From positions 1-34,783 of IMG/VR virus record IMGVR_UViG_3300031519_000100: 34,783 nt of DNA. One strand, written 5' to 3'. Positions 14,332-33,204 of the stretch are shown here, in pieces. A program made the position numbers and the translations under genes. Numbering within the stretch: position 1 is the stretch's first letter; each line of letters opens with the position of its first letter. Origin of the DNA: a virus. Lineage: Duplodnaviria; Caudoviricetes. The notes under the pieces are model-generated. The model made no database searches. It saw only the letters and a list, made by a program, of their open reading frames with translations, and was not told where the DNA came from.

Positions 14332-14332
14332 A

Positions 14333-14937: not shown

Positions 14938-14946
14938 ATATAAAAA

Positions 14947-17217: not shown

Positions 17218-17220
17218 ATA

Positions 17221-17541: not shown

Positions 17542-17573
17542 CAATTATTAATTAACCTTTAAATTTAAGTAAA

Positions 17574-17783: not shown

Positions 17784-17784
17784 A

Positions 17785-18320: not shown

Positions 18321-18327
18321 ATAGATT

Positions 18328-18492: not shown

Positions 18493-18566
18493 AAGAACCT
18501 AAAACTTGCCAATGTGGAAACACAACAAATCTAAACGGATATTGTGACGGTACTCATTTAAAATAA
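18489..18566 (+). CDS. CDGSH-type iron-sulfur motif microprotein (25 aa)
   Basis: MKEPKTCQCGNTTNLNGYCDGTHLK; ATGA-coupled upstream, stop 3 nt before the endolysin ATG. Confidence 0.65.
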   Translation: MKEPKTCQCGNTTNLNGYCDGTHLK

Positions 18567-18569
18567 AAT

Positions 18570-18920: not shown

Positions 18921-18938
18921 TACCGTAGGTAATACTTT

Positions 18939-19355
18939 ATGGCTGAAAGAAAGAAAATAAAAGATACCGCCGTAGGTAAGTTTCTGCTCTCTAAAATTCC
19001 TAACGTTGTTTCGGCTATTGCGGATAATACAGCCGTTGGTAGCGTCTTACAAGCTATTATAGGCGGCTCCGATATGAGCGAAGACGATAAACAAGTAGCT
19101 CTTAAAAAACTTGATATAGAACGAGCCGAAATAGACGGGACTACTAGACGTTGGGTGGCGGACGCTAGGAGCGGCTCTTGGCTATCCTCTAACGTTAGAC
19201 CTTTAACTTTAGTATTCTTAACCGTAAGTTATGTAATAGGTTGGTATATGGGCTATCCTTTGGATTCTATTACCGGTTTGCTGAGTATTGTGATTGGAGG
19301 ATATTTCGGAAGCAGAGGTGTTGAGAAAGTATTCGGAAACTCAAAACATCAATAA
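18939..19355 (+). CDS. Holin (3TM/GTA-holin-like)
   Basis: RWVAD...SWLSSNVRPL, two C-terminal hydrophobic helices, GGYFGSRGVEK; next to the endolysin. Confidence 0.8.
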   Translation: MAERKKIKDTAVGKFLLSKIPNVVSAIADNTAVGSVLQAIIGGSDMSEDDKQVALKKLDIERAEIDGTTRRWVADARSGSWLSSNVRPLTLVFLTVSYVIGWYMGYPLDSITGLLSIVIGGYFGSRGVEKVFGNSKHQ

Positions 19356-19486
19356 TGGCAAAGCAAATAGTTATTAACTATAAAAAAGTTAAGATTAAGC
19401 GTAAGGGAATACATAGTAAATGTAAGAACTCGGCTTTAAAATCTTCTAAGAATTATTCTAAAAAATATCGTGGTCAAGGCAAATAG
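19355..19486 (+). CDS. Small basic peptide ending KKYRGQGK (43 aa)
   Basis: TAATG coupling; MAKQIVINYKKVKIKRKGIHSKCKNSALKSSKNYSKKYRGQGK. Confidence 0.7.
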   Translation: MAKQIVINYKKVKIKRKGIHSKCKNSALKSSKNYSKKYRGQGK

Positions 19487-19512
19487 TGTTTATAACTCAA
19501 TTATCCAAACTC

Positions 19513-19543
19513 TTGATTATTAAAAAAAAACGAAGTAACTTTG
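19513..19543 (+). promoter_or_regulatory. Bacteroidota-type host promoter opening the recombination/replication region
   Basis: TTG-N20-TAACTTTG upstream of the ORF at 19614. Confidence 0.6.
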
Positions 19544-19613
19544 GTGGGTAGTGGTTAAATAACTACTTAATTATCTTATATAATAAATTTTTACAAATTT
19601 TAATTAATATATA

Positions 19614-19871
19614 ATGGAAATTGAAGAAAGAATAAGAAAGATACAAGGGTATAAAACTTGGAGCTTAAAAAAGAAAGTTGATGCTCTTTTAGAAATCGAT
19701 GCAAACAATTATACAAATCTAGGTATAGACTCAAGCAAAACCGAAAAGAAAGAAGTAAAAACAATAAGTAGAAAAATCTATAAGGCTATATCTTTAATAA
19801 GTCCTTTAGACGGTTATATCTTAGAGTCCCATATGAACGAAAAGGATTTAAGAAATCTTATAGATGCCTAA
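19614..19871 (+). CDS. Hypothetical protein
   Basis: 85-aa ORF overlapping the NinG start. Confidence 0.75.
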   Translation: MEIEERIRKIQGYKTWSLKKKVDALLEIDANNYTNLGIDSSKTEKKEVKTISRKIYKAISLISPLDGYILESHMNEKDLRNLIDA

Positions 19872-20247
19872 AAAACCAACAAGAAGTAAACTTGTAAAGA
19901 AACTCGATACGGTATTTAGTCAATGGATAAGGTTAAGCAATGCGGACAACAATAAAAATTGTATTTGTATTACTTGCAATAAGACGTTCTTTTGGAAAGA
20001 AATCCAAGCGGGGCATTTTATGAGTAGAAAACATTATAGTATTCGTTGGGACGAAAGAAACGTTAAACCTCAGTGTGTTGGTTGTAATGTATTTAAATAC
20101 GGAGAACAATATAAATTTTCTCTTTTTTTAGGGAAAGACGCTGCGGAAGTATTATATTTGAAAAGTAAAGAAATTGTTAAGTTTACTAATTATGAACTTG
20201 AAGATAAAATAAACGATTATAGTCTTAGACTAAAAAAGCTTACTTGA
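19864..20247 (+). CDS. ninG: NinG/Rap-like recombination endonuclease
   Basis: LDTVFSQWIR, CITC, QAGHF.SR, RWDERNVKPQCVGCN. Confidence 0.85.
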   Translation: MPKKPTRSKLVKKLDTVFSQWIRLSNADNNKNCICITCNKTFFWKEIQAGHFMSRKHYSIRWDERNVKPQCVGCNVFKYGEQYKFSLFLGKDAAEVLYLKSKEIVKFTNYELEDKINDYSLRLKKLT

Positions 20248-20277
20248 TTTTTTTCTTGTAATATTGTTCTTTGTTTG

Positions 20278-20312
20278 AAAAGGGTAGGATTAATTTCTTG
20301 CCCTTTTTTTTT
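20278..20312 (+). terminator. Intrinsic terminator after ninG
   Basis: AAAAGGGTAGGA-loop-TCTTGCCCTTTT followed by a T-run. Confidence 0.7.
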
Positions 20313-20340
20313 GTTAATTATTTTTTTGTATCTTTACAAT

Positions 20341-20448
20341 ATGGAACAATTTACAAAGGCGGAACTCTATGGTAAGACTTTAGAACTGCAACACGAAAAC
20401 GAACAATTAAAGAATCAATTAATCTTAAACTTAAAGAACAATGAGTAA
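20341..20448 (+). CDS. Small coiled-coil peptide (35 aa)
   Basis: MEQFTKAELYGKTLELQHENEQLKNQLILNLKNNE; preceded by a TATCTTTA -7-like element; overlaps the ERF start. Confidence 0.5.
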   Translation: MEQFTKAELYGKTLELQHENEQLKNQLILNLKNNE

Positions 20449-20965
20449 GAAAGAAACAAGTATTAATGAAAAGCTATTTAACCTACAACAAGAAATAGGT
20501 ACAATTAGCAAGGATGCAAGTAATCCTTTTTATAAGTCAAAGTATTTTGATATAAACTCTTTGATAAAACAACTTCAACCTTTATTAAAAAAGAATAAGC
20601 TTTTACTTTTACAACCTATCGAAGAAGATATGGTAGTAAGTAAGTTACTTTGTATTGAAGGAGGAGGAGGAGTAGTAAGCGGATTAAAATTACCTCCAAT
20701 AGCGGATCCACAAAAATTAGGAAGTTGTATAACATATTACCGACGCTATACGCTTTCAAGTCTTTTAGGTTTACAATCCGAGGATGACGATGCAAATGCG
20801 GCAAGCGGTAACACGATAGAAACAAAAGAGAAACCTTGGCTAAATAAAGATACTTTACAATTTACCAAAGCGATAGACTTCTTAACTCAAGGCGGTAATA
20901 TCAAAGATATAGAAGCAAAGTACAAAATAAGTAAATCGGTTAAGGATGAGTTATCTAAACTGTAA
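20441..20965 (+). CDS. erf: ERF-family single-strand annealing protein
   Basis: KDASNPFYKSKY, PQKLGSCITYYRRYTL..LLGL..EDDDAN. Confidence 0.9.
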   Translation: MSKKETSINEKLFNLQQEIGTISKDASNPFYKSKYFDINSLIKQLQPLLKKNKLLLLQPIEEDMVVSKLLCIEGGGGVVSGLKLPPIADPQKLGSCITYYRRYTLSSLLGLQSEDDDANAASGNTIETKEKPWLNKDTLQFTKAIDFLTQGGNIKDIEAKYKISKSVKDELSKL

Positions 20966-21024
20966 AATAAAAAAAGTATATTACACAACTAAATATAAAA
21001 ACAAATCAATCAAAATAACTATTT

Positions 21025-21357
21025 ATGGAAATTACAGGAAATATCAAATTAATAAACGAAACGGAAACGGGAACCTCGAAAGCGGGAAAGGAATGGGCGA
21101 AACGTCAAATAGTAGTAACGACTAGCGAAACGTATCCTCAACATATAGCTATTGATTTTATGGGAGATAAAATAACTCAAATAAATAATTTCGAAGTTGG
21201 GAACCCGGTAGTAGTATCTATTAATATTAGAGGTAACGAGTATAACGGAAAATACTACAATAGTATAAACGGTTGGAAAATTGCAAACTCAATAGGACAA
21301 GTAAATAATACGGAGCAAAACCCGTCGAGAGAACAAACGGCGGACTTGCCTTTTTAA
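21025..21357 (+). CDS. Single-stranded DNA-binding protein (DUF3127-like)
   Basis: MEITG.I, GKEW.K, YPQ.I, NIRG.EYNGKYYNSI.GWKI; C-terminal DLPF. Confidence 0.85.
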   Translation: MEITGNIKLINETETGTSKAGKEWAKRQIVVTTSETYPQHIAIDFMGDKITQINNFEVGNPVVVSINIRGNEYNGKYYNSINGWKIANSIGQVNNTEQNPSREQTADLPF

Positions 21358-21364
21358 TTTAATC

Positions 21365-21387
21365 GGGGGTTAATAGCCCCCTTTTTT
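21365..21387 (+). terminator. Intrinsic terminator after the SSB gene
   Basis: GGGGGTTAATAGCCCCC followed by TTTTTT. Confidence 0.8.
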
Positions 21388-21396
21388 AATACCTTA

Positions 21397-21546
21397 ATGA
21401 AAAAACTTAAAGAAAATGAGCCTTTCCCCGTTGACTTTTGGAATTACAACGTAAACCAAATTACGGGTTATTATATTAAATCAAACAGAAACGAACAAAA
21501 CAAAAAAACAATTAAAAAATACGCTAAACCCCCACAAGGATTATGA
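21397..21546 (+). CDS. Small hypothetical protein (49 aa)
   Basis: MKKLKENEPFPVDFWNYNVNQITGYY...; ATGA overlap with the helicase gene. Confidence 0.6.
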   Translation: MKKLKENEPFPVDFWNYNVNQITGYYIKSNRNEQNKKTIKKYAKPPQGL

Positions 21547-22457
21547 TAGCACAAGCGAAGAACATACAAAACAAAATACTAGATATTAAATACGGTAGAA
21601 TAAAACAAGGTTTAAAGCTTGGTATACCTCAGATAGATGAGCACTTGCGCTACAAACAGGGCAATTTTAATTTGGTAATCGGACACGCCAATTCGGGGAA
21701 AACAACTATTATGATTTACTTGTTTGTACTTTGGGCGGTTAAATATAAGTTGAGGTTTTTAATTTGGTCGAGCGAAAATACTCCTCAATCAATAGTAAGA
21801 AAGATTATAGAATTTAAAATGGGGTTACCAATTACCGAGGCTACGGATAAACAAATTAATACCGCCGTCTCTTGGTGCGACAATCATTTTAAAATTATAG
21901 ACGTAGAAGATTTATATACCTATAAGCAACTAATAAAAGAAGCTCAACAAATTAAGGACGCTTGGAATTACGATTGTCTTTTAATAGATCCCTATAATAG
22001 TTTATCTAAAGATCCAACGTTACAAAAGCTCGTAGGTAATTCGCACGATTACGATTATCAAGTAGCGAGCGAGTTTAGACTATTAGCTAAGAAGAGAAAT
22101 ATAACCTTGTATTTGAACGCTCACGGAGTAACTAGCGCAATGCGTGCGATACATACCAACGGCGAATATCAAGGCTTGCCTAAACCCCTAGGAATGGCGG
22201 ACGTTGAAGGAGGAGGTAAATGGGGAAACCGGGCTGACGATACGCTTTGTATACATAGATACTCGACGCATCCTACCGATTGGATGTATTCTAATATTTT
22301 CATACTCAAGGTAAAAGAAAACGAAACCGGCGGAAGACCCACACCGTTCGATTCGCCTATACAAATTAAAATGAAGATTAATAACGTCGGGTTTGAATAT
22401 CTAGGATCTGATTTATTAAAAGAAAAAGAATCTATAACCGATAAAATACCGTTTTGA
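21543..22457 (+). CDS. DnaB-like (SF4) replicative helicase, no primase domain
   Basis: Walker A GHANSGKT, WSSEN, Walker B LLIDPYN, LNAH, NRAD. Confidence 0.85.
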   Translation: MIAQAKNIQNKILDIKYGRIKQGLKLGIPQIDEHLRYKQGNFNLVIGHANSGKTTIMIYLFVLWAVKYKLRFLIWSSENTPQSIVRKIIEFKMGLPITEATDKQINTAVSWCDNHFKIIDVEDLYTYKQLIKEAQQIKDAWNYDCLLIDPYNSLSKDPTLQKLVGNSHDYDYQVASEFRLLAKKRNITLYLNAHGVTSAMRAIHTNGEYQGLPKPLGMADVEGGGKWGNRADDTLCIHRYSTHPTDWMYSNIFILKVKENETGGRPTPFDSPIQIKMKINNVGFEYLGSDLLKEKESITDKIPF

Positions 22458-22675
22458 TTATACTAATTTTTTTATTGATAGTTGCGTTTGTCTTTTTATT
22501 AATAGGACATTTAAAAGACGGCGAAATTATTATTAGTCCAATCAAAGGAATAATGTTTGGTTTTTTATATCACAAAGAAGAGTATTTAGAAGAGGACGAG
22601 TTTACCTTACAATGTCTATTAGGAGTAATAAGTGTAAACGTAATATGGAAAAAACCGCCGAATGGCTTAAAATAG
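22454..22675 (+). CDS. Small protein with N-terminal hydrophobic helix
   Basis: 73 aa, TTG start overlapping the helicase stop. Confidence 0.6.
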   Translation: MIILIFLLIVAFVFLLIGHLKDGEIIISPIKGIMFGFLYHKEEYLEEDEFTLQCLLGVISVNVIWKKPPNGLK

Positions 22676-23196
22676 TAGCTAAAGACCATAAAAAGTGGGT
22701 TAAGCTAGTTAATGATTTAGGAGAGTATAGTTTCGCCGAGGATATCGTCCAAGAGGCTTATATTGTTTTATATAAATATACCAATGAAGAAAGTATTATT
22801 AAAAACGGGAAGGTATCTAAAGGATATATGTTTTATACTTTACGTTCGGTTTTGTTTCAATTACACAATGCTAAAAAGAAATTTAAAAAGCAAGAAATAA
22901 CCGACAAAGAATTTTTTAATAAAATACCTCATATAGATAATTTAGACGTTGAGGAAGGTTATAACAATTTTTGTATTCTATTAGATAAAAAGGTAGATAC
23001 TTTTAATTGGTATGATCAAAAGCTTTGGAGGTTATATAGCCAAACCGATATGAGTATAAGGAAAATAGCCTCCGAAACTAATATAAGTTGGGTAAGTATA
23101 TTTAACAGCCTAAAGAATATTAAGAACGATTTAAGAGAGGATTTAAAAGAAGATTACGAGGACTGGCTAAATAAAGATTTCGAACGATTAAAATAA
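22645..23196 (+). CDS. Phage-encoded sigma70/ECF-like sigma factor
   Basis: Region 2-like AEDIVQEAYI; region 4 HTH SIRKIASETNISWVSIFNSLK; start reassigned to the ATG at 22645. Confidence 0.8.
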   Translation: MEKTAEWLKIVAKDHKKWVKLVNDLGEYSFAEDIVQEAYIVLYKYTNEESIIKNGKVSKGYMFYTLRSVLFQLHNAKKKFKKQEITDKEFFNKIPHIDNLDVEEGYNNFCILLDKKVDTFNWYDQKLWRLYSQTDMSIRKIASETNISWVSIFNSLKNIKNDLREDLKEDYEDWLNKDFERLK

Positions 23197-23201
23197 AAAC
23201 T

Positions 23202-23618
23202 ATGGAAGAGTACAAAGGTGACAAAAGAAGTAAGGAATATCGACAATGGAAAAAAAACCTAGAGCAATCTAGTAAAGGATTAGGAGATAAAGTCGAGAAG
23301 GTTTTTAAAACGGTAGGAATTGACAAGGCGGCAAAATTTATATTAGGAGAGGACTGCGGATGCGAAGAGCGTAAGGATACATTAAATAAAATCTTTCCAA
23401 GTAAAAAGATAAATTGTTTAACGGAGGAAGAGTATAATTACTTAGCTAATTTTTTTGAGTCTAAACCTCAAACCGTTAAGCCGGATATCCAAAAGGAGTT
23501 AATTGTTATATACAATCGTATTTTTAACGAGCGAGCCGGTACAACGGGATGCGACTCTTGTTTCGCTAGGGGTATCTTTGCTAAACTAAAACAAGTATTT
23601 AACGAGTATAACGATTGA
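23202..23618 (+). CDS. Conserved phage protein with GLGD...CGC motif, probably metal-binding
   Basis: GLGDKVEK...EDCGCEERK...CL...CDSC. Confidence 0.7.
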   Translation: MEEYKGDKRSKEYRQWKKNLEQSSKGLGDKVEKVFKTVGIDKAAKFILGEDCGCEERKDTLNKIFPSKKINCLTEEEYNYLANFFESKPQTVKPDIQKELIVIYNRIFNERAGTTGCDSCFARGIFAKLKQVFNEYND

Positions 23619-23995
23619 AAGAGAAAGAACTATTTGAGTATCTTATAGATTGTTGTTACCCGGATCTAGTAAAAGCTAAAAAACAAATGTCTCGATGGGA
23701 TTGTTATAGTCCGGATAGTAGCCATAGGATAGAATTAAAATGTAGGGGTAAGCATTACGATACGTTATTAATTGAAAAAAAGAAGTTCGACGCTTTAATC
23801 GTAAAATGTAACGACAATCTCGATATACCTCTTTATATAAATTCTACTCCAAAAGGAGTATTTAAATTTAATTTGTATATTGTTGAGCCGATTTGGGAAA
23901 TACAATACCATAATAAAACTACTCAATTTGCGAACAATAATAAGATACCTAAAGAGGTTGCGATGCTAGATATAAAAGACGCAGAAATATTATAA
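23615..23995 (+). CDS. PD-(D/E)xK nuclease-like protein
   Basis: E...WDC...IELKCR pattern. Confidence 0.6.
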   Translation: MKEKELFEYLIDCCYPDLVKAKKQMSRWDCYSPDSSHRIELKCRGKHYDTLLIEKKKFDALIVKCNDNLDIPLYINSTPKGVFKFNLYIVEPIWEIQYHNKTTQFANNNKIPKEVAMLDIKDAEIL

Positions 23996-24006
23996 ACAAA
24001 GAAACA

Positions 24007-24321
24007 ATGAACAAGAAAATAAACAATATTAAAGAAGCGGAATACTATACAAACTTCAACTTAGTTGGAGAAAATATAATTAAATCAAGAAAGCTAAAGC
24101 CAGAAAACAAAGCCTTAAACGAGATGTATTTCTCTTGGCAAGAGGTAGGCTTTTACGTACATAACCTTATAGGTAGCGAGAGACTTTATAACGATTCTTT
24201 AAGCGAGTACCGAACCGATAAAATAAGAGCCGTAGAGCGTGCGAGAGTTGCCGAAGATAAGGTTAAAGGATTAGAGGAAGAGATACAAAGACTAAAAACT
24301 AGAATCGATGTTGGTATTTAA
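24007..24321 (+). CDS. Hypothetical protein with C-terminal coiled coil
   Basis: 104-aa ORF within the operon. Confidence 0.7.
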   Translation: MNKKINNIKEAEYYTNFNLVGENIIKSRKLKPENKALNEMYFSWQEVGFYVHNLIGSERLYNDSLSEYRTDKIRAVERARVAEDKVKGLEEEIQRLKTRIDVGI

Positions 24322-24403
24322 AATTATTTTAGGGTACGGACTATTAAGAATAATAGAAGCAATGGTAGTAAAAGCAATTAAACAAAGTTATTTCGATGAG
24401 TGA
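24308..24403 (+). CDS. Small hydrophobic peptide (31 aa)
   Basis: MLVFKIILGYGLLRIIEAMVVKAIKQSYFDE; bridges the gap between neighbouring genes. Confidence 0.4.
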   Translation: MLVFKIILGYGLLRIIEAMVVKAIKQSYFDE

Positions 24404-24665
24404 TTCAATAAAGAAGTGGCACGAAATGCAAGAAGATAAAAAATGGACTTCCGATAGTACGGGATACTCTTATAATAATCTTCCGAAAGATCCAATAGTA
24501 GAAAACGTTTTAAACAAGTTTAAGGCTCGATCAAGAGACGGTATTATAAAGTATGGCACAACTCTATACGATAACCCCGACGGGTTTTTTAAGTTCCTTA
24601 CGCATCTTCAAGAGGAGTTAATGGATGCTACGCTATATATTGAGAAGCTAAAACAACAGAAATGA
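24396..24665 (+). CDS. Hypothetical protein, possibly MazG-like nucleotide pyrophosphohydrolase fold
   Basis: GIIKYGTTL...HLQEELMDATLY. Confidence 0.5.
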   Translation: MSDSIKKWHEMQEDKKWTSDSTGYSYNNLPKDPIVENVLNKFKARSRDGIIKYGTTLYDNPDGFFKFLTHLQEELMDATLYIEKLKQQK

Positions 24666-24775
24666 AAGAATCAACATTAGTTAAGATGCAATACGATCTT
24701 AAGTTAGTACAACAAGCTTTAGTAGTTGCGTTAAATAAAATAGAAGCAATAGAAAATAAATTAGAAAAAAGTTAA
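24662..24775 (+). CDS. Small coiled-coil peptide (37 aa)
   Basis: ATGA coupling; MKESTLVKMQYDLKLVQQALVVALNKIEAIENKLEKS. Confidence 0.55.
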   Translation: MKESTLVKMQYDLKLVQQALVVALNKIEAIENKLEKS

Positions 24776-24782
24776 TAAAATG

Positions 24783-24812
24783 TTTGTATGTTAAAAATAA
24801 ATACTATATTTG
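24783..24812 (+). promoter_or_regulatory. Bacteroidota-type host promoter
   Basis: TTTG-N18-TATATTTG; 33 bp (24765-24797) identical to 30309-30341. Confidence 0.8.
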
Positions 24813-24837
24813 AGTATAATTAACAAAAACAAACAAA

Positions 24838-25062
24838 ATGAAAGATTTAAAAATAACACAATTAGAAGAAACGGTATTAGAGATTATCTCTTGGGGAGAT
24901 GAGTACGAAGAAACTCCAGCTGAATGTTTTGGGAATATAATGGACAGCTTTAACGGAAGTAAAAATCAATTAAAAGGGGTTTTAGGTTCGCTTATTACAA
25001 AAGATTTAATATGGGAAGGAGAATACCCAAACGGATTAAATAGTTATCATTTAAATAATTAA
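24838..25062 (+). CDS. Hypothetical protein, moron-like (possible winged helix)
   Basis: 74 aa with its own promoter and terminator; ITQLE..VL...NQLKGVLGSLITKDLI. Confidence 0.75.
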   Translation: MKDLKITQLEETVLEIISWGDEYEETPAECFGNIMDSFNGSKNQLKGVLGSLITKDLIWEGEYPNGLNSYHLNN

Positions 25063-25070
25063 AAATAACA

Positions 25071-25091
25071 GGGGGCGAAAGTCCCCTTTTT
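25071..25091 (+). terminator. Intrinsic terminator
   Basis: GGGGGC-GAAA-GTCCCC followed by TTTTT. Confidence 0.8.
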
Positions 25092-25103
25092 AAATAAAGA
25101 ACA

Positions 25104-25250
25104 ATGGACATAGAAAAACGTACACAAAACGCATTTAAGATTGGACAGGCTTTAGGTAAAGCAAAGCAAATACTTTATTATAGCACTAACGATATTAATA
25201 AAAAACAATTACAAGAATTAATTAAAACAATAAATAGCATAGAATTATGA
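25104..25250 (+). CDS. Small hypothetical protein (48 aa)
   Basis: MDIEKRTQNAFKIGQALGKAKQ...; ATGA overlap with the next gene. Confidence 0.55.
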   Translation: MDIEKRTQNAFKIGQALGKAKQILYYSTNDINKKQLQELIKTINSIEL

Positions 25251-26014
25251 TAACATTACTAAACGGGGACGCTTGGGCAAAGGAAGAAATCCTAGCTAAT
25301 ATGTTTGACGATGAGTTTTATTATGGGCATCTAGGCAAGCACGCTTTAAGTAGCTCAAGCCTTAAAACTATTCTTAAAAGTCCTAAGACTTATAGAAACG
25401 TAATTAAGTACGGAGATCCTAGCGCAGATAGTCCGGCTTTATCTCTAGGAAAATTAGCACATTGGATGTTATTAGAACCGCATAAGATTGATAAGCTACA
25501 TTTTATAGACGCTTCGACTAAGAATACATTAAAATATAAAGAAGCTAAAGAAAACTACGACGAAGTATTTTTAACTAAAGAACGCAAAGCAACGGAACGA
25601 ATAACCGACGCCGTACTAAGAAACGAAGCCGCTTTAAAACTATTAAGTAATAGCGAGTTTGAAGTTCCCGAGATTGCAATGCTTGAAGGATTACCGTTTC
25701 GAGGAAAGGCGGACATTATACAAGGCGATACTATAATTGATTACAAGACATCTAGCGAGCTTAAAGGATTTAGGTACTCGGCGGATAAGTACGGGTATGA
25801 CCTACAAGCCTATTTATATTTAAGACTTTTTAATAAAAAGAAGTTTACTTTTTTAGTAGTAGATAAAGGAAGTACCGATATAGCAATATTCGAAACAAGC
25901 GAAGATTTTATTAATAAAGGAAAAGATAAGTTTTATACCGCCGTTGAGAACTACAAGTATTTCTTTGAGGATAATAACGATCTCGACCAATACGTTATGC
26001 GGGGAATACTATGA
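25247..26014 (+). CDS. RecE/exodeoxyribonuclease VIII-like PD-(D/E)xK exonuclease
   Basis: LSSSSLK..L.SP, G.L.H...LEP, E, RGKADII, IIDYKT, YDLQAYLY. Confidence 0.85.
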   Translation: MITLLNGDAWAKEEILANMFDDEFYYGHLGKHALSSSSLKTILKSPKTYRNVIKYGDPSADSPALSLGKLAHWMLLEPHKIDKLHFIDASTKNTLKYKEAKENYDEVFLTKERKATERITDAVLRNEAALKLLSNSEFEVPEIAMLEGLPFRGKADIIQGDTIIDYKTSSELKGFRYSADKYGYDLQAYLYLRLFNKKKFTFLVVDKGSTDIAIFETSEDFINKGKDKFYTAVENYKYFFEDNNDLDQYVMRGIL

Positions 26015-26664
26015 GAGAGTTTAGCTTCGATACAATAGAAGATTTCGACGGGCATATTAATAAAAGTATTCCTTCGTTTAATATATTACTAAACTTAATA
26101 GAAAACATTTCTTATAGTTTTATAAGAGATAATTATAACGTCTACGATTTAGGTTGCTCCAAAGGTAGCTTACTTTTAAATCTAAGTAAAGACAATAAAA
26201 CAAATACTAAGTTTGTAGGATACGATATATCTTCAAACCTTTTGCCTAAGAAACAAGATAAGGTATTATTTGAAAAAAGAGATATAACGGAAGAGGATAT
26301 TAAATTTGTAGATCCGTCTTTAATATTGTCGATATTTACGTTACAGTTTATTGATTATAGTAAAAGAAAACCTTTACTAAATAAGATATATAAATCTTTA
26401 AATAAAGGAGGAGCTTTTATAATAGCAGAGAAAGTATTTGTTGAGGACTCGTATATACAAGATATATTTACTTTTGCCCTATACGATTATAAAATAACTA
26501 ATTTTACTCCTAGCGAGATCTTGAGCAAACAAAAAGATTTAAGAAAGATTATGTTTCCCCTAAAGGAAAAAGAAAATATTAAGTTATTTAAAGAAGCCGG
26601 GTTTAAAACAATAGAACCTTTTTTCCAATCCTTAAATTTTAAAGCTTGGTTATGTATAAAGTAG
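26011..26664 (+). CDS. cmoA: CmoA-like carboxy-S-adenosylmethionine synthase
   Basis: FD.HI.KSIP, VYDLGCS.G, FTLQFI...R..LL.KIY..L..GGA.I.AEK, EI..K...L...M and AGF...E.FFQ.LNF all parallel the CmoA family. Confidence 0.82.
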   Translation: MREFSFDTIEDFDGHINKSIPSFNILLNLIENISYSFIRDNYNVYDLGCSKGSLLLNLSKDNKTNTKFVGYDISSNLLPKKQDKVLFEKRDITEEDIKFVDPSLILSIFTLQFIDYSKRKPLLNKIYKSLNKGGAFIIAEKVFVEDSYIQDIFTFALYDYKITNFTPSEILSKQKDLRKIMFPLKEKENIKLFKEAGFKTIEPFFQSLNFKAWLCIK

Positions 26665-27737
26665 AATACAAACCTATAAAATTAAAAGACGTTAAGGAGG
26701 AGTCTAATAAAAACCTATTTAACGTTATCTCTTTCTTTGCCGGAGGAGGAGGATCTTCTTTAGGATATAGAATGGCGGGAGGAAAAGTCTTAGCAATAAA
26801 CGAATTTGTAGAAAGCGCACAAGATACCTACCGGGCTAATTGGGAAGATACTAAAATATACCCTAGCGATATAAGAGAGATTAAAGGAGAGGATATACTA
26901 AGAGATCTTAACCTTAAAAGAGGAGAGCTAGATATATTAGACGGATCGCCCCCCTGCGCTTCTTTTTCTATGGCTGGCAATAGAGAGAAAGATTGGGGTA
27001 AAGAAAAAAAGTATAGTAACAAGACTCAAAAGACCGACGATCTATTTTACGAGTTCTCAAGATTAATAAAAGAAATTCAACCTAAAACTTTTATAGCGGA
27101 AAACGTTAAAGGTTTATTAATCGGTCAAGCCAAAGATTTATTTGGTAGCGATCAACTATCTATGTTCGGAGAGCATAAGGAGACGATATACCATACCTTA
27201 ACTAATATAGGTTATAGAGTTTCTTATAGAGTTTTAAACGCTAAAAACTTTGGAGTACCTCAATCAAGAGAAAGATTAATTATAGTAGGTGTAAGAGACG
27301 ATATACAAAAAAGATTTAAATTCCCTAAACCAACAAGCTATATATATAATCTAAAAGAATCTTTTAAGGACTTAGAGAATACAAAGGAAGAGCTAAAGGA
27401 ATCTAATATCGAAGCTTACGCAATATATCAAGAGTCTAAAAAGCTACAAGAAGGAGAACAAAGCGAAAAGTATTTTAGTCTAATAAAGTCCGATAGAAAT
27501 AAACCGGCGGGAACCCTAACTCAAACGGCGGGATGTATATCCGCTGCCTCTATTATACATTGGGAAGATAGAAAGTTTACCGTTAAGGAAGCTAAAAGAA
27601 TAATGAGTTTTCCCGACGATTATAAATTAGAAGGAAAGTATAGAGATAAGATAGAAAGACTAGGGAGAGCCGTTCCCCCTTTATTAATGAGAGCGGTAGC
27701 AAAGCAACTATATAATTTAATTTTAAAAGAACAATGA
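26652..27737 (+). CDS. C5-cytosine DNA methyltransferase homologue, predicted DNA carboxymethyltransferase
   Basis: Motif I FAGGGG, IV GSPPCASFS, VI ENVKG, VIII PQSRER; motif X reads GRAVPP instead of GNAVPP; start reassigned to the ATG at 26652. Confidence 0.88.
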   Translation: MYKVEYKPIKLKDVKEESNKNLFNVISFFAGGGGSSLGYRMAGGKVLAINEFVESAQDTYRANWEDTKIYPSDIREIKGEDILRDLNLKRGELDILDGSPPCASFSMAGNREKDWGKEKKYSNKTQKTDDLFYEFSRLIKEIQPKTFIAENVKGLLIGQAKDLFGSDQLSMFGEHKETIYHTLTNIGYRVSYRVLNAKNFGVPQSRERLIIVGVRDDIQKRFKFPKPTSYIYNLKESFKDLENTKEELKESNIEAYAIYQESKKLQEGEQSEKYFSLIKSDRNKPAGTLTQTAGCISAASIIHWEDRKFTVKEAKRIMSFPDDYKLEGKYRDKIERLGRAVPPLLMRAVAKQLYNLILKEQ

Positions 27738-28171
27738 AACAAATAAACATATTCGGAGAGATAGAAGAAAAAACTTGGTTTGAGGATAACTTAAAACAAA
27801 TCAAAATAGGACTAGAAGGCGAAAGCCAAATAAGAGCAATGTTAAGCAAAAAGAATATAAGGTTTATGCAAGCCGACTTAATATTTAACTATAACGATCA
27901 GTACTATTGCGGAGAGGTTAAAACACAAGAGAAGTATCTAGCTCCTCCTTTTGACGGTCACGGATTAGCAATGTGGCAAATAACCGCAAGATTAAACCTA
28001 TATAATAAAACGGGAATTATACCTTACTTATTCGTTAGATGCCTAACCGATAACGTTGTATATCATCAAGACCTTAGAGAGTTAATGAAAACCAATTATT
28101 TTCAAACTAAAGGATCTAGCCCAAGAGTAATATTTAATTTAAACGATTTTAAAAAAACTACTATTGAGTGA
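27734..28171 (+). CDS. PD-(D/E)xK restriction-fold nuclease-like protein
   Basis: GLEGE...ADL...GEVKT pattern; ATGA-coupled to the methyltransferase homologue. Confidence 0.6.
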   Translation: MKQINIFGEIEEKTWFEDNLKQIKIGLEGESQIRAMLSKKNIRFMQADLIFNYNDQYYCGEVKTQEKYLAPPFDGHGLAMWQITARLNLYNKTGIIPYLFVRCLTDNVVYHQDLRELMKTNYFQTKGSSPRVIFNLNDFKKTTIE

Positions 28172-28380
28172 ATAAAGAAAAAATGCGAGACCATTATCTT
28201 TTAGCTTTAGTCGATATATCAAACGGAAAAGATATAAGAGAGCTAGAAGAGGCAATCGATTTATACGAACTAAACGAAGAGTATGAGGCTTGCGCCGGAA
28301 TATTGAAAGCAATACACGAATCAGGATACTTAACAATAAAAGACTTAATAAAAATAATAGATGAACAACGAGACGATTAA
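28168..28380 (+). CDS. Hypothetical protein
   Basis: 70 aa, GTGA overlap; EEYEACAGILKA. Confidence 0.7.
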   Translation: MNKEKMRDHYLLALVDISNGKDIRELEEAIDLYELNEEYEACAGILKAIHESGYLTIKDLIKIIDEQRDD

Positions 28381-28846
28381 ACAACTAGTAGAAAACTATT
28401 TTAAAATAAAACTAAATAGTAAAACAAGAGTTAGACAATACGTAGAAGCGAGAGCAATATACTATAAACTATTAAGAGAGAATACTCGAATGAGTTTAGC
28501 CGCTATTGGTAAAACAATGGATAGAGACCACGCAACGGCTTTGCATTCAATAAGAAAGATAGAAGATTGGTTACAATTCGATAGACAATTAAAACAAGAC
28601 TACAATACCTTAAACGCTAGGGTACAACACGCTATAAGATTAAACCCGGATTTATTTAACGAGGTTAAATCGGTAGAAGAGTTTTACGAGGTTGAGTATA
28701 AGAAACTAGAGGATAAATATAACCAAGTATTAAGAAACAATACAAAAGAATATAGGGAGTTGGTTACTAAATACAACTTCTTAAAGTCGGTATTAAAGGT
28801 ACATCAACCTAAAAGAATAGAGAGCGGAGAGTTTGATCTAGTTTAA
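28361..28846 (+). CDS. DnaA domain IV-like HTH DNA-binding protein
   Basis: R...VEARAIYYKLLRE.T.MSL.AIG..M.RDHATALHS..KI resembles the DnaA C-terminal signature. Confidence 0.8.
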   Translation: MNNETIKQLVENYFKIKLNSKTRVRQYVEARAIYYKLLRENTRMSLAAIGKTMDRDHATALHSIRKIEDWLQFDRQLKQDYNTLNARVQHAIRLNPDLFNEVKSVEEFYEVEYKKLEDKYNQVLRNNTKEYRELVTKYNFLKSVLKVHQPKRIESGEFDLV

Positions 28847-28871
28847 CAAATTGATACAAAAGTTATTATAT
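28845..28871 (+). promoter_or_regulatory. Phage-specific late promoter motif, copy 5
   Basis: AACAAA-N12-TTATTATAT upstream of the terminase small subunit gene. Confidence 0.75.
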
Positions 28872-28896
28872 AATTGAATAAACAATCTATTTCAAT

Positions 28897-29139
28897 ATGG
28901 ATAAGAGAATAAATAACGGAGGAGCTAGAGAAGGAGCCGGAAGGAAACCTAAAGCCGAAGAGATAAAACTAGTAGAAAGATTAAGCCCTTTAGAGGACGA
29001 TGCGTTAACCGCTTTATCGGAAGGAGTTAAATCCGGGGATATCAAATGGGTAACTCTATACCTCAACTACTATTTAGGAAAACCTAAAGAAACTAGGGAT
29101 ATAACTATAAACGAGGACTTACCTCTTTTCGTAGATTAA
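28897..29139 (+). CDS. terS: Terminase small subunit (putative)
   Basis: GGAREGAGRKP N-terminus; abuts the large subunit gene. Confidence 0.7.
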   Translation: MDKRINNGGAREGAGRKPKAEEIKLVERLSPLEDDALTALSEGVKSGDIKWVTLYLNYYLGKPKETRDITINEDLPLFVD

Positions 29140-30309
29140 ATGCGGGTTAAAATAACCAAAGCATTAACCAAGTTAAGAGAATTAGATAAACGAATCAAAG
29201 TAGTAAGAGGTGGAACTTCCGCCGGTAAAACTATTTGTATTCTACTTATCCTAATCGACTATGCAATAAAAAACCAAGGTAAAGAGATAAGCGTAGTATC
29301 GGAGTCTATACCACATCTCCGTAGAGGAGCTTTAAAGGACTTCTTATCCGTTTTAAAAGGACTCAATAGGTATAAGGAAGATCAATTCAATAGGAGTACC
29401 TTAAAGTATACTTTTACGAATAATAGTTATATCGAGTTCTTTTCAACGGATCAACCGGATAAACTAAGAGGCGCACGAAGAACCGACCTCTATATCAATG
29501 AATGCAATAACGTACCGTTCGACGCATATACTCAGTTAGCCGTAAGAACCTCCGGAGATATCTGGCTTGACTATAATCCGTCGAGTTTGTTTTGGGTTGA
29601 TAAAGAAATAATAGGGCAACCGGATACGAACTATATAACCCTAACCTATAAAGACAACGAAGTACTTCCGCAATCAATAGTAGACGAAATAGAGAAAGCA
29701 AGAGAAAAAGGTAAGACCTCGACTTATTGGGCTAATTGGTGGAACGTCTACGGACTTGGAAAAATCGGTGCGCTCGAGGGAGTATGTATTCCGGATTGGA
29801 AAGAGATTGATAAAATACCAAACGAAGCTAGACTATTAGGATATGGCTTAGATTTTGGATACTCGGTAGATCCAAGTACGATCATTTCTCTTTACAAATG
29901 GAACGAAGCCTATATATACGATGAGGTACTATATAAGAAAGGAATGCTCAATAGAGATATTAGTAGATTCTTAACTCAACTAGATATAAAAGAAACTATT
30001 GTGGCGGATTCCGCAGAGCCAAAGAGTATCGCCGAACTTCAAGGGTACGGGCATTCTATATACGGAGTAAGCAAAGGAAGAGATTCCGTAGTACACGGTT
30101 TAAACCTAATGAATCAAAACGAGATCTACGTTACCTCAAGAAGTAAGAATCTAAAAAGAGAACTAGGAGGTTATATATGGGCTAAAGATAAAGAAGGAAA
30201 TACGTTACAAAAACCTACGGGGTTGCATCCGGACTGTATAGATGCGGCACGCTATATTTTAACCGATCAATTAGAGAACCCAAATAAAGGAGAATATTAT
30301 ATTTATTAA
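29140..30309 (+). CDS. terL: Terminase large subunit (PBSX/SPP1-like)
   Basis: RGGTSAGKT Walker A, LYINE Walker B, DYNP, GLDFGY..DP, DSAEP, DCIDAARY. Confidence 0.95.
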   Translation: MRVKITKALTKLRELDKRIKVVRGGTSAGKTICILLILIDYAIKNQGKEISVVSESIPHLRRGALKDFLSVLKGLNRYKEDQFNRSTLKYTFTNNSYIEFFSTDQPDKLRGARRTDLYINECNNVPFDAYTQLAVRTSGDIWLDYNPSSLFWVDKEIIGQPDTNYITLTYKDNEVLPQSIVDEIEKAREKGKTSTYWANWWNVYGLGKIGALEGVCIPDWKEIDKIPNEARLLGYGLDFGYSVDPSTIISLYKWNEAYIYDEVLYKKGMLNRDISRFLTQLDIKETIVADSAEPKSIAELQGYGHSIYGVSKGRDSVVHGLNLMNQNEIYVTSRSKNLKRELGGYIWAKDKEGNTLQKPTGLHPDCIDAARYILTDQLENPNKGEYYIY

Positions 30310-30326
30310 AAAAAGTTAATAAAATG

Positions 30327-30356
30327 TTTGTATGTTAAAAAAGTTTTGTATATTTA
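30327..30356 (+). promoter_or_regulatory. Bacteroidota-type host promoter
   Basis: TTTG-N18-TATATTTA; shares blocks with the promoters at 24783 and 12119. Confidence 0.75.
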
Positions 30357-30375
30357 CAAAGTAAAACAAAGACAA

Positions 30376-30579
30376 ATGAAAGTAAACAAAATACAAGAAG
30401 GAGTATACAAGATTAAAGACTCAAGAGGGACTTGGATAGCTACGGGTGGTTATGCTACTATGAATGGTAAGTGGACAGCTTTCGATGCTAGTACTCGTGA
30501 AGATTGTACAACTTTAAATAATTGGGCAGTACAATTTGACACTTTTAAACAATTAAAAGAATTTGCAAAAAACAATTAA
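30376..30579 (+). CDS. Hypothetical protein, moron-like (67 aa)
   Basis: Start reassigned to the ATG at 30376, downstream of the promoter. Confidence 0.75.
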   Translation: MKVNKIQEGVYKIKDSRGTWIATGGYATMNGKWTAFDASTREDCTTLNNWAVQFDTFKQLKEFAKNN

Positions 30580-30586
30580 TAAAAAG

Positions 30587-30617
30587 TTTGGTAGTTAATA
30601 AAAAGTTTATATCTTTG
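30587..30617 (+). promoter_or_regulatory. Bacteroidota-type host promoter
   Basis: TTTG-N19-TATCTTTG. Confidence 0.8.
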
Positions 30618-30632
30618 AGTATAATTAACAAA

Positions 30633-30701
30633 AATAGAGGTTACTAATCGTTAGATTTTCGTTGAGTAACTAAACAAGACAAAAGAGATTAAACCTCTAT
30701 T
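30633..30701 (+). other. Inverted-repeat-bounded structured leader element
   Basis: AATAGAGGTT (30633-42) and AACCTCTATT (30692-701) form a perfect 10-bp inverted repeat; inner GTTACT/AGTAAC stem. Confidence 0.55.
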
Positions 30702-30719
30702 ATATTAAAACAAAGACAA

Positions 30720-30974
30720 ATGGAAACTAAAATATTTTATACGGAAACAGGATACGATAGAACAAGCTACATCTTTTTTGAGATGAGAAAGGAAACAAAA
30801 TGTTTTTATTACTTAGAAGCTATTGGAAAACATAACAACGAATATGGCGTTAATCCAGATAGAACTAAGGTTACGGGAACAGGATTTAGAATCAAAAAAG
30901 AAAACAAAAGTTTCATACAATGGAACGGACAATCTTTAAAAGAAAATAGAAACTATACTTATACAGGAGCATAA
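30720..30974 (+). CDS. Hypothetical protein, moron-like
   Basis: 84 aa with its own promoter and terminator. Confidence 0.75.
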   Translation: METKIFYTETGYDRTSYIFFEMRKETKCFYYLEAIGKHNNEYGVNPDRTKVTGTGFRIKKENKSFIQWNGQSLKENRNYTYTGA

Positions 30975-30992
30975 GAGGGGAACCTCTTTTTT
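30973..30992 (+). terminator. Intrinsic terminator
   Basis: AAGAGG-GGAA-CCTCTT followed by TTTT. Confidence 0.65.
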
Positions 30993-31011
30993 ATTAACCA
31001 ATCAATTAACT

Positions 31012-31164
31012 ATGACAACAAAGAAAAACAATAGAGTAGAAACAAGGATATTAAAAGCTATCTTTAGTAGTAAGAATATAATATTAGGATCAACTTGGGT
31101 TTTAACGGCTTACGCTTCAATGTACGCTTGGATGTATTTAATAATGTTTATATTTGAATTATAA
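31012..31164 (+). CDS. Small single-TM protein (50 aa)
   Basis: MTTKKNNRVETRILKAIFSSKNIILGSTWVLTAYASMYAWMYLIMFIFEL. Confidence 0.55.
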   Translation: MTTKKNNRVETRILKAIFSSKNIILGSTWVLTAYASMYAWMYLIMFIFEL

Positions 31165-31165
31165 A

Positions 31166-31384
31166 ATGCGAGAGGCTTGTTGGTACGAGAATATATATAT
31201 AGTTCAAAAGCCTATTAGTCGAGGTACTAAAAAGGGAGGTTACGACGTAAAGATTAATATAGATTACAAGGGTAAGAATACAATCGAAGGTAACCAAACC
31301 TACCAACAAAACTCAATCGAGTTAGAAGATAAAATAGAAGAGGCGTATAGATACGCTTATAAAAGGTTTATATTAGGAGAATAG
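31166..31384 (+). CDS. Hypothetical protein (72 aa)
   Basis: ATG at 31166, 1 nt after the upstream stop. Confidence 0.65.
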   Translation: MREACWYENIYIVQKPISRGTKKGGYDVKINIDYKGKNTIEGNQTYQQNSIELEDKIEEAYRYAYKRFILGE

Positions 31385-31427
31385 TTTGGGCAGCTACAAA
31401 TGTCCGTTTCATTTTGTTAGTAGGATT

Positions 31428-31459
31428 AGGGGAGCTTACCTGACTAGGTTCCTCTTTTT
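31428..31459 (+). terminator. Intrinsic terminator before the tail operon
   Basis: AGGGGAGCTTA-loop-TAGGTTCCTCT followed by TTTT. Confidence 0.65.
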
Positions 31460-31466
31460 CTATTTA

Positions 31467-31493
31467 TACAAATAAGGTTTAATTTTATTATAT
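31467..31493 (+). promoter_or_regulatory. Phage-specific late promoter motif, copy 6
   Basis: TACAAA-N12-TTATTATAT; ATG at 31498. Confidence 0.75.
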
Positions 31494-31497
31494 ATAT

Positions 31498-32157
31498 ATG
31501 AAAGTACAGATAACCGTTCCGGATAGTTTAAAGGATATTAAGCTCGATCAATATCAAAGGTTTGAAAAGCTAAATACCGAAGAAAATAAAGACACTTCTT
31601 TTATACTTCAAAAAATGATTGAGATCTTTTGTAACCTTAATCTAAAGGACGTAGCTAATATTAAGTTTAGAAGTATTCAAGAAATAACAAAGCATCTTAA
31701 CGGGGTATTTGACGTTAAAACAAATCTTACCTCAACGTTTAAATTAGGTGGAAAAGAGTTTGGATTTATACCTTTGCTAGACGAAATAACTCTAGGAGAG
31801 TATATCGATCTCGATACCTATCTAGGAGACTGGCAAAAAATGAATAACGCTATGAACGTTCTTTATAGACCAATAACTTTTAAGAATAGTACTAGATACA
31901 ATATAGAAGACTATAAGGAAAGCGATAATACCGAACTCCTAAAAGATATGCCTTTAGATATCGCAATGGGTTCCCTTGTTTTTTTTTGGAATTTAAACAA
32001 CGAACTATTACAAACTACCCTGAAATATTTGAATCAAGAGGCGAAGAAAATGAATATGGATCAGCGGCTGGTTTTGGAAAAAAGTGGGGTTGGTATCAAT
32101 CAATCTATGGACTCGCTCAAAAAGATGTTACCAAGTTTGATGATATTACAAAACTAA
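31498..32157 (+). CDS. Putative tail assembly chaperone (zero-frame product)
   Basis: 219 aa; first gene of the tail operon; contains a T9 slippery run. Confidence 0.6.
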   Translation: MKVQITVPDSLKDIKLDQYQRFEKLNTEENKDTSFILQKMIEIFCNLNLKDVANIKFRSIQEITKHLNGVFDVKTNLTSTFKLGGKEFGFIPLLDEITLGEYIDLDTYLGDWQKMNNAMNVLYRPITFKNSTRYNIEDYKESDNTELLKDMPLDIAMGSLVFFWNLNNELLQTTLKYLNQEAKKMNMDQRLVLEKSGVGINQSMDSLKKMLPSLMILQN

Positions 32158-32237
32158 ACGCTAATAAATGCTTTATGTATCTAGCCTTTGAAAAGGAAAA
32201 GATAGAATTAGAAAAAAAACAAATAAGAAGTAAATGA
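31986..32237 (+). CDS. -1 frame extension of the tail assembly chaperone
   Basis: Begins exactly at GTT TTT TTT TGG (31978-31989); encodes YPEIF...KWGWYQSIY; stop overlaps the next ATG. Confidence 0.7.
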   Translation: MEFKQRTITNYPEIFESRGEENEYGSAAGFGKKWGWYQSIYGLAQKDVTKFDDITKLNANKCFMYLAFEKEKIELEKKQIRSK

Positions 32238-32692
32238 AAGGATTCTACAACTTAACGGATAAATTAAAAGATACTTTACTTGCAGAACCTTTTGTTAATA
32301 CGGTTACTTTCGGAAGTATAGACGAAGTAGACTTAAACAAACAGACGATCTTTCCTTTATCTCATATTACGGTAAACAATACAACCGTAAATAGTAAGAC
32401 CTTAACTTTTAACGTTAGTATCCTAGCAATGGATATAGTCGATATAAGTAAGGAAGCGACTACAGATATATTTGTAGGAAACGATAACGAACAGGACGTA
32501 TTAAATACTCAATTAGATTTATTAACTAGAATTATAAATATCCTTCAACGAGGTAATCTCTTTACCGAACTTTACCAAGTAGAAGGAGACGTAAGCTGCG
32601 AGCCTTTCGTAGATAGATTCGAAAACAAACTAGCCGGCTGGGTTGCAACCTTTGACGTAATAGTCCAAAACGATATGACGATATGCAATTAA
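32234..32692 (+). CDS. Tail terminator-like protein
   Basis: 152 aa, acidic; VNTVTFG, IFPLSHI, EPFVDRFEN.LAGW. Confidence 0.6.
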   Translation: MKGFYNLTDKLKDTLLAEPFVNTVTFGSIDEVDLNKQTIFPLSHITVNNTTVNSKTLTFNVSILAMDIVDISKEATTDIFVGNDNEQDVLNTQLDLLTRIINILQRGNLFTELYQVEGDVSCEPFVDRFENKLAGWVATFDVIVQNDMTICN

Positions 32693-33204
32693 AGGAAGTA
32701 AATAAAACTCTTAATCAATTCGGTAAGTACGTCGTTTCTCAATCAAGAGCAAACTTAACGCGAGGTAAAAAAAACAATACTAAAAACCTATGGGATAGTA
32801 TAAATTATACTTTAGATCAAACAAGCGCAGGACCACGTTTATATTTTGAAATGGACGATTACGGTATGTTTCAAGATCAAGGAGTAAAGGGTAAAAACCC
32901 TAGCCTAGTAAAGAACGGGAAACAAAAAGCCCCGAATAGTAAGTTTAGTTTTAAGAATAAAATGCCTCCGCTCAAACCTTTAATACAATGGGCTAAAAGT
33001 AAAAATATAAGACTAAGAGATAGTAAGGGAAAGTTTAAAAAAGGAAGTTACCAAACAATAGGATTTATATTACAAAAGAGAATATTTGCTCAAGGTATAA
33101 AACCTAGCTTATTTTTTACTAAGCCTTTTGCAAAAGAATTTAAAAACCTACCTCCGGAGTTAGGTAATAGTTTCGGAATAGATATAGAAAAAATATTAAG
33201 TTAA
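32683..33204 (+). CDS. Tail completion/neck-like virion protein
   Basis: 173 aa, basic; LWDSI.Y, M.DYG.F.D.G, MPP...L..W, GIKP..FF. Confidence 0.6.
   Translation: MQLKEVNKTLNQFGKYVVSQSRANLTRGKKNNTKNLWDSINYTLDQTSAGPRLYFEMDDYGMFQDQGVKGKNPSLVKNGKQKAPNSKFSFKNKMPPLKPLIQWAKSKNIRLRDSKGKFKKGSYQTIGFILQKRIFAQGIKPSLFFTKPFAKEFKNLPPELGNSFGIDIEKILS

Follow-up and report, generated by a model that had tools for sequence, protein, structure and literature searches.

Why does a marine phage encode a candidate synthase for carboxy-S-adenosylmethionine (carboxy-SAM) directly in front of a homologue of the cytosine C5-methyltransferases, and which word of its DNA would such a pair modify? The stretch studied here, called the window, comprises positions 1 to 34,783 of IMG/VR record IMGVR_UViG_3300031519_000100 (Duplodnaviria; Caudoviricetes), that is 34,783 nucleotides. 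A preliminary description of this DNA had pointed out two overlapping genes, here named cmoA and cmoX, the second with intact C5-methyltransferase motifs and with ERLGRAVPP (Arg codon 27666-27668) as its motif X; in these details it is accurate. From comparison with a characterized system the pair very probably makes 5-carboxymethylcytosine (5cxmC) from carboxy-SAM. Overlapping cmoX at its end is the gene for a 145-amino-acid protein with a predicted nuclease fold, and the chances appear about even that CmoA and CmoX are the modification half of a phage restriction- or nicking-modification pair aimed at CA(B), not at GC as in Synechococcus phage S-B43.

In S-B43, CmoA makes carboxy-SAM, CmoX writes 5cxmC at GC with Arg350 as key residue and CmoY ligates glycine (PMC12783734); the preliminary description had mentioned a natural cyanophage example. 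Wild-type SpCmoX uses carboxy-SAM only (PMC12783734). The open reading frame (ORF) 26011-26664 of the window matches the profile TIGR00740 over its full length (E 1.7e-37, 129 bits, the NCBIfam equivalog cut-off of 193.3 bits not being reached) and CmoA/YecO entries of the PDB at E 2e-25 to 5e-24, other methyltransferases following at 2e-6 or weaker. Its CmoA-like character over the whole length, for which a profile search had been proposed, is thus borne out. A point against activity is the missing canonical Arg199, which in E. coli CmoA forms a salt bridge to the carboxylate (PMC3663124). Going by E. coli positions assigned by hand on the printed alignment, Gln174 occupies this column in the window protein and Arg178 follows at +4, one helical turn on. 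However, the active SpCmoA has the same shift, with Glu in the Arg199 column and Arg at +4, so that Gln174 need not count against activity of the window CmoA.

The cmoX ORF is open from a TTG at 26646 and overlaps ORF 26011-26664; since its homologues start at the Met at 26652, the protein probably has the extent given in Table 1. Its best sequence match is PDB entry 8YF3 (E 2.5e-72), which is also the top fold match of the structure model (Foldseek rank 1, E 7.5e-33; template modelling score 0.81/0.88), and its identity to S-B43 CmoX is 40 %. The motif X Arg (R341) aligns with SpCmoX Arg350, with M.HhaI Asn304 and with the Asn that M.HaeIII has in motif X, and it is invariant in 56 of 56 aligned rows. 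The earlier placement of this Arg at the cofactor-facing Asn holds for these enzymes; the matches to M.MpeI and Dcm end before motif X. Of the two precedents named for a basic residue at this position, M.MpeI N374K is in print (PMC13288465); a search of text passages gave no mention of Dcm N436K. The cofactor residues F31, E53, F54 and D75 match F25, E47, F48 and D69 of SpCmoX, and every published diagnostic residue of CmoX has a counterpart in the window protein, which supports the 5cxmC chemistry proposed at the outset. Furthermore, cmoA is present in 52 of 64 loci with an Arg-type CmoX, a co-occurrence for which a test had been proposed and which is counted among Arg-type loci only. No CmoY was detected by tblastn with three ligase queries, and PF00733 is missing from the record rated 100 % complete (positive controls worked); therefore 5cxmC is probably the final base.

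Judged by sequence, the window genes belong to the CmoX and phage CmoA families and not to the three-gene system with CmoY. The novelty claimed for a compact version of the system is not supported in the form argued, as 5,615 CmoX candidates are listed in PMC12783734 (4,257 with CmoA and 2,251 with a ligase) and phage S-CRM01 already has the same cmoA-cmoX two-gene form without CmoY. A term search of the supplements of that paper for four IMG/VR contig ids gave no match, and its main text, as available, has no mention of a partner nuclease, a clamp or Bacteroidota. In the literature searched at the level of listings and abstract openings, which lay outside subscription papers and bioRxiv supplements, no CmoX in a restriction-modification pair and no CA target came to light. 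The chemistry is already known; the setting, consisting of slot, nuclease and CAB avoidance, is apparently new.

The word at which the mark would be placed is suggested by the composition of the phage genome, which avoids CAB and its complement VTG (Table 1). Codon-spanning CAB/VTG sites number 565 against an expectation of 1266±23 from 200 shuffles which keep the protein and its own codon usage, and three sister loci without the module lie near expectation (953/940, 1106/1060 and 846/872 seen/expected). GC has a rho of 1.13 in the window and CG one of 1.36. In the comparison of window and sisters, the loss routes have values of 0.71 versus 0.26 for C at NNY before G, 0.09 versus 0.29 for C before A[CGT] and 0.18 versus 0.52 for XCA before a non-A base. 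That CAB sites are lost by several routes means selection against the word and not deamination; cytosine deamination as the sole cause of the CA loss was rejected, because the prevailing changes are T to C in VTG and A to C or G in CAB. The terminase gene terL contains 30 CAB sites in the window and 17-32 in its clade, against 67-97 in 62 distinct sisters with at least 2.6 kb of upstream DNA and no nuclease therein; among 50 further terL genes with short upstream DNA 2 are low. From this composition the C of CA(B), rather than that of GC, is somewhat favoured as the CmoX target. Taken by itself, the recognition region of CmoX did not predict the target cleanly, since L164, L165, L168, L173 and L175 have similar regions and yet CA values of 0.81-1.11.

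The 145-amino-acid protein keeps D48 and E61-x-K63 in at least 90 % of 21 aligned rows. Its structure model has a predicted local distance difference test value (pLDDT) of 92, and its Atlas look-alike is PDDEXK_14 (score 0.96). The family comprises 277 representatives at E<=0.001. Among 104 distinct family sequences from fetched loci, the window and near-duplicates being counted, 99 adjoin a DNA-modifying gene, and eight types of modifier occur. Directly upstream stand 55 DPPY-type and 7 CPPY-type amino-methyltransferases (3 of the 55 DPPY-type labels are without a DPPY motif in the available DNA), 17 MT-A70 and 13 CmoX genes and, more rarely, an ordinary C5 enzyme (1), Mom (2), TAGT (1, a TET-associated glycosyltransferase) and an EcoRI-type enzyme (1); in two more loci a methyltransferase lies downstream. 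The remaining five have FtsK, an unlabelled gene, an exonuclease only (2) or the contig end as neighbour. From this context it seems an open bet, with equal weight on either side, that the protein is the cognate site-specific nuclease. A Vsr-like repair role was set aside because of the canonical E-x-K motif and the pairing with adenine modifiers.

The genes in front of the nuclease behave as the content of a swappable slot. In near-identical phages of three lineages a CPPY-type amino-methyltransferase (PF01555) replaces cmoA and cmoX before the same nuclease: in the window versus L012/L295 (nuclease 92 %; terminase 100 %, L012), in L013 versus L014 (both 99 %) and in L163 versus L306 (nuclease 97 %, terminase 93 %). 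A DNA identity of 93-95 % flanks the slot, ends at the exonuclease stop (26014) and returns at 27717. The divergence of the alleles roughly tracks the lineages, with 92 % and 76 % for CmoX and 88 % and 72 % for the methyltransferase; that both diverged in step with the lineages suggests a long coexistence. The alternative allele is also seen in two further runs, X5 and X7, which contain a contig that joins 26010 to 27734; the loose end in X5 reads as the start of the methyltransferase. As this join rests on 37 letters at likeness 88, it may stem from a close relative and not from the same species.

Across the relatives the avoided word correlates strongly with the nuclease, though with exceptions. 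The comparison covers 82 distinct complete slots, 19 with and 63 without the nuclease. CA is at or below 0.67 in 16 of the 19 carriers, one more avoids CAG only and two (L056, L160) avoid neither, compared with CA values of at least 0.95 in 62 of the 63 slots without nuclease, the exception being L067. None of 13 sister genomes that are at least 90 % complete holds the nuclease or a C5 enzyme anywhere; the control for this search, positive in 4 of 4 known carriers, covered the nuclease and not the C5 search. A nuclease tree of 24 chosen rows contains a CAB clade (support 95/99) with 3 CmoAX and 4 methyltransferase loci, a CAG clade (93/96), in which methyltransferase and Mom occur, and, supported at 95/91, a CAH-like clade with 3 CmoAX loci and 1 methyltransferase. 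In this tree the avoided word, CAB, CAG or CAH-like, tracks the nuclease clade and not the modifier. CCWGG avoidance as the source of the CAG loss in L243, L244 and L308 was rejected, since ACAG and TCAG are depleted too.

Table 1 Features of the window, with coordinates, strand and the observations on which each assignment is based
Feature	Position	Strand	Basis or remark
Exonuclease VIII-like gene	25247..26014	+	family scans; its stop is the left edge of the swappable slot
Swappable slot, cmoA and cmoX here, amino-methyltransferase, Mom or TAGT in relatives	26011..27716	+	locus alignments
cmoA, predicted carboxy-SAM synthase, 217 amino acids	26011..26664	+	profile and structure matches
cmoX, predicted cytosine C5-carboxymethyltransferase, 361 amino acids	26652..27737	+	sequence and fold matches
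FAGGGG, ENV and QSRER in cmoX, C5-methyltransferase motifs I, VI and VIII	26736; 27099; 27261	+	sequence reading
SPPC, catalytic motif IV of CmoX, S101-C104	26946..26957	+	alignment; Cys104 is the equivalent of SpCmoX Cys98
QLSMF, beta-clamp-motif-like, in a 12-residue loop insertion not in SpCmoX	27153..27167	+	alignment
Target-recognition region of CmoX, diverged from SpCmoX	27453..27563	+	alignments
Motif X Arg of CmoX, codon AGA, R341 counted from TTG, within ERLGRAVPP	27666..27668	+	alignment
145-amino-acid predicted PD-(D/E)XK nuclease, proposed cognate endonuclease	27734..28171	+	4-base overlap with the cmoX stop
QINIF, N-terminal clamp-motif-like sequence of the 145-amino-acid protein		+	sequence reading
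CAB/VTG avoidance	1..32701	.	CA/TG rho 0.67; CAC 0.36, CAG 0.48, CAT 0.46, CAA 1.13

If these parts belong together, CmoA would make carboxy-SAM from host SAM and prephenate, and CmoX would write 5cxmC at CA(B) on the phage DNA. The nuclease would cut or nick unmarked CAB in the host's DNA or in that of a rival, the mark would shield the phage genome, and residual self-cutting would select against CAB therein. As CAB is asymmetric, the proposed cognate nuclease is possibly a nickase. Because CAB, CAG excepted, has a cytosine on one strand only, marking would have to follow soon after replication, as otherwise one daughter duplex would stay unmarked. A QxxxF-type motif is present in 112 of 120 CmoX homologues and missing in SpCmoX; in the window CmoX it lies in a lower-confidence part of the structure model. 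Motif-like N-termini are also found on the nuclease and on the alternative methyltransferase of the slot. These sequences, which resemble the beta-clamp consensus, would fit a tethering to the clamp, and the idea that CmoX, attached to the host beta-clamp, quickly marks newly made DNA is speculative and carries somewhat less than an even chance. The full proposal is a phage restriction- or nicking-modification system with a carboxymethyltransferase acting at a CA site of two to three bases, with 5cxmC, amino-methyl, Mom and glycosyl alleles before one nuclease family, with 5cxmC and methyl alleles coexisting across lineages and with nuclease and modifier tethered to the clamp; in this entirety it is put forward tentatively.

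Several observations weigh against the pairing of CmoX with a cognate nuclease. The closest solved folds of the 145-amino-acid protein are archaeal Hjc and RecU, Holliday-junction resolvases with 10-24 % identity, at a middling score (Z 7.1, root-mean-square deviation 2.9, 85 aligned), and the protein matched no Pfam, PHROG, NCBIfam or PADLOC family. In a tree of 28 chosen terminase rows five changes of the depleted state occur, and an approximately unbiased test rejects a single clade of the depleted lineages (p-AU 0.0005), which counts for the pairing, though the test was run after the first tree had been seen. An independent-pairs test on 18 of the 28 rows had just two supported pairs (p 0.5), so that statistics across the lineages do not establish the case; the loci are not independent samples. 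The complete genome G026 carries cmoA and a CmoX with duplicated module and has no such nuclease, yet its CA is 0.53 and its CC 0.71, and of the 61 distinct CmoX loci that lack the nuclease 6 have CA below 0.7. CmoX alone may therefore drive the avoidance, which supports the CA target and weakens the need for the nuclease. L056, L160 and most of the distant loci that combine the nuclease with a DPPY-type or MT-A70 enzyme show no CA avoidance, and a common avoided word across the distant nuclease loci was sought and not found. Furthermore, no modifier adjoins the nuclease in L259 and L342, and in L067, whose slot contains neither gene, CA is avoided.

These objections leave room for CmoA and CmoX acting without a partner: they would mark CA against host restriction, the avoidance would be the cost of a bulky mark, and the downstream protein would be a travelling resolvase or packaging helper. 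We regard this as unlikely, while taking it seriously in view of G026, which avoids CA without nuclease, of Hjc and RecU as best folds and of the prediction that phage methyltransferases near terminase genes are linked to packaging (PMC4738411). GC is also mildly low in S-B43 (0.78) and S-CRM01 (0.67) against 0.86 and 0.93 in two cyanophage stretches, a weak control made on partial genomes, the two comparison phages being absent from the best 40 of 894 rows. However, the same word is avoided with the small methyl allele, CAG is avoided with Mom, and modifiers of eight types adjoin the nuclease family in 99 of 104 cases; moreover, the genome already has a gene for a NinG/Rap junction nuclease. 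The preliminary description, which took the evasion of restriction as the probable purpose, had missed that a nuclease-like gene overlaps cmoX downstream, that the slot is swappable and that CAB is avoided throughout the genome. These points make self-protection in a pair resembling restriction-modification, instead of plain camouflage, the likely role. An improbable alternative has a CAB-recognizing host defence behind the avoidance as well as behind the modifier chosen, with another target for the phage nuclease. L067 and L072 avoid CA, the former with neither gene in its slot, and a switching of chemistry is what modification-dependent host restriction would favour; against it, different clades of the phage nuclease go with different avoided words, and L095 combines a CAB-type nuclease with CAB avoidance though its terminase branches apart from that of the window.

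It is very improbable that CmoX marks CG or GC and that the CG excess reflects a gain of protected sites. CG is 1.2-1.55 in the module clade compared with 0.34-0.82 in undepleted sisters, and the S-B43 enzyme acts at GC; but CAB also disappears through C-to-T and A-to-C changes, which create no CG, CAA/TTG is spared in clade A and not in clade B, and GC is unremarkable in the window. Scarcely credible, finally, is an ordinary methyltransferase producing 5-methylcytosine beside a generic or inactive CmoA-like methyltransferase. The score of CmoA below the family cut-off and the lack of Arg199 would agree with it, but the biochemically active SpCmoA lacks Arg199 likewise, wild-type SpCmoX with the same motif X Arg accepts nothing except carboxy-SAM, and cmoA accompanies Arg-type CmoX in the proportion given above.

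Among known systems, that of S-B43 (PMC12783734; 8YF3) shares with the window a CmoA beside a C5 homologue in which SPPC and the Arg of motif X are present. It differs in its CmoY ligase and ParB partner, both missing here, and the window in turn has a diverged recognition region, a clamp-motif-like loop, an overlapping nuclease gene and a swappable slot, and its genome of about 32.7 kb, with a probable Bacteroidota host, avoids CAB and not GC. If the proposed pairing is right, the window would resemble the chlorovirus enzymes Nt.CviPII (/CCD) and Nt.CviQII in combining a viral nuclease, a short asymmetric site and a cognate modifier; the presumed role of those nicking-modification systems is the degradation of host DNA (PMC7019647). 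The likeness would be one of function; here the virus is a bacteriophage, the mark carboxymethyl instead of methyl, and the nicking putative. An unusual base modification together with a nuclease of restriction endonuclease fold is also found in the Mom-restriction endonuclease proteins predicted in jumbo phages, which are predicted to attack DNA that belongs to the host or to superinfecting phages (PMC7824862). Two relatives of the window with Mom in the same slot recall these proteins, which are, however, fusions, whereas the window genes are separate and their chemistry interchangeable; the accessible text of PMC7824862 has no mention of CmoA or carboxy-SAM. The engineered M.MpeI N374K and M.CviPI (PMC13288465) agree with the window enzyme in the basic motif X residue and, as predicted for the latter, in the use of carboxy-SAM and the product 5cxmC; they are CpG- or GpC-specific, whereas the window enzyme occurs naturally and its predicted target is CA(B). 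With Hjc and RecU the 145-amino-acid protein has the PD-(D/E)XK core in common, but unlike them its family stands in a context of DNA modification.

Should the proposed pairing prove true, 5cxmC would gain an offensive role beyond camouflage, shielding its bearer while unmarked DNA is destroyed. The slot would be a natural experiment on why a phage pays for carboxy-SAM when methyl fills the same place, which bears on modification-dependent host defences. In addition, a CA-directed carboxymethyltransferase would be a new reagent beside the CpG and GpC enzymes of epigenetic sequencing, the nucleases would cut very often, at CAB, CAG or CAH-like sites, and the targets of thousands of CmoX enzymes might partly be read from genome composition.

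The whole-window record of this marine phage is rated 100 % complete, with a unit of about 32.7 kb (1..32701). The 2,083 bp by which its ends overlap (1-2083 versus 32702-34783) are 97 % identical, 55 mismatches and 4 gaps being counted; no exact terminal repeat was found at the window ends, and the overlap probably represents two strain variants in one assembly. The best terminase matches are Flavobacterium phages (49 % identity) and one homologue of the nuclease is labelled Xanthomarina, which makes a Bacteroidota host probable; the earlier assignment to Bacteroidota stands in this sense, on evidence that is indirect for the host. From the nuclease itself no host emerged, as it matched a single cellular contig and nothing in annotated phages or PADLOC; no RNA holder was listed. 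The profile TIGR00740 gave no signal in the single Bacteroidota control genome, and a Bacteroidota host would probably be without its own CmoA. As stated in the preliminary description, no tRNA gene was found in the window, and general family scans of its proteins gave no CmoB label. ParB, Mom, TAGT and amide ligases including CmoY were sought in the genome without result.

The words GGCC, CATG, CTATAG, GCTAGC, GGTACC, GAATTC and GAGCTC are absent from the whole window and CGCG is rare; GGCC and CATG are missing from most sister phages too. Such a pattern is typical of the avoidance of host restriction sites. The tail-fibre block 15001-17500 is free of CAB avoidance (CA 1.09), which suggests a recent acquisition. 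Strong CA avoidance with no modifier in the available DNA occurs in L067, L072, L150, L259, L260 and L342, where the nuclease stands alone in L259/L260 and L342, L067 has neither gene and the loci L072 and L150 are incomplete. MT-A70 stands directly upstream of the nuclease family in phage and metagenome contigs, among them L265, L269, L270, L276, L284 and L294. The Mom-family gene (PF25680) precedes a CAG-clade nuclease in L244:1109-1693 and L308:402-986, where CAG is the only word avoided, and TAGT (PF20691) lies directly before the nuclease homologue in L245:3-869, where CA is mildly low (0.87). CmoX itself also occurs in forms of about 470 amino acids with a tandem duplication of the recognition region and motifs IX-X (L376:14374-15774, which is G026, L189:9947-11353, P0010, P0018 and P0026); the Arg is kept in both copies, and these forms are possibly bispecific. 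A tandem pair of CmoX-like genes near cmoA is found in L164:9980-12351 and L168:9980-12068, with low GC (0.76-0.81) and depleted AGCT and AGCC. Finally, the Moraxella phage Mcat8 prophage (L011:15779-17486) contains an unannotated CmoX with the motif X Arg and 48 % identity, followed by a CmoA-like gene.

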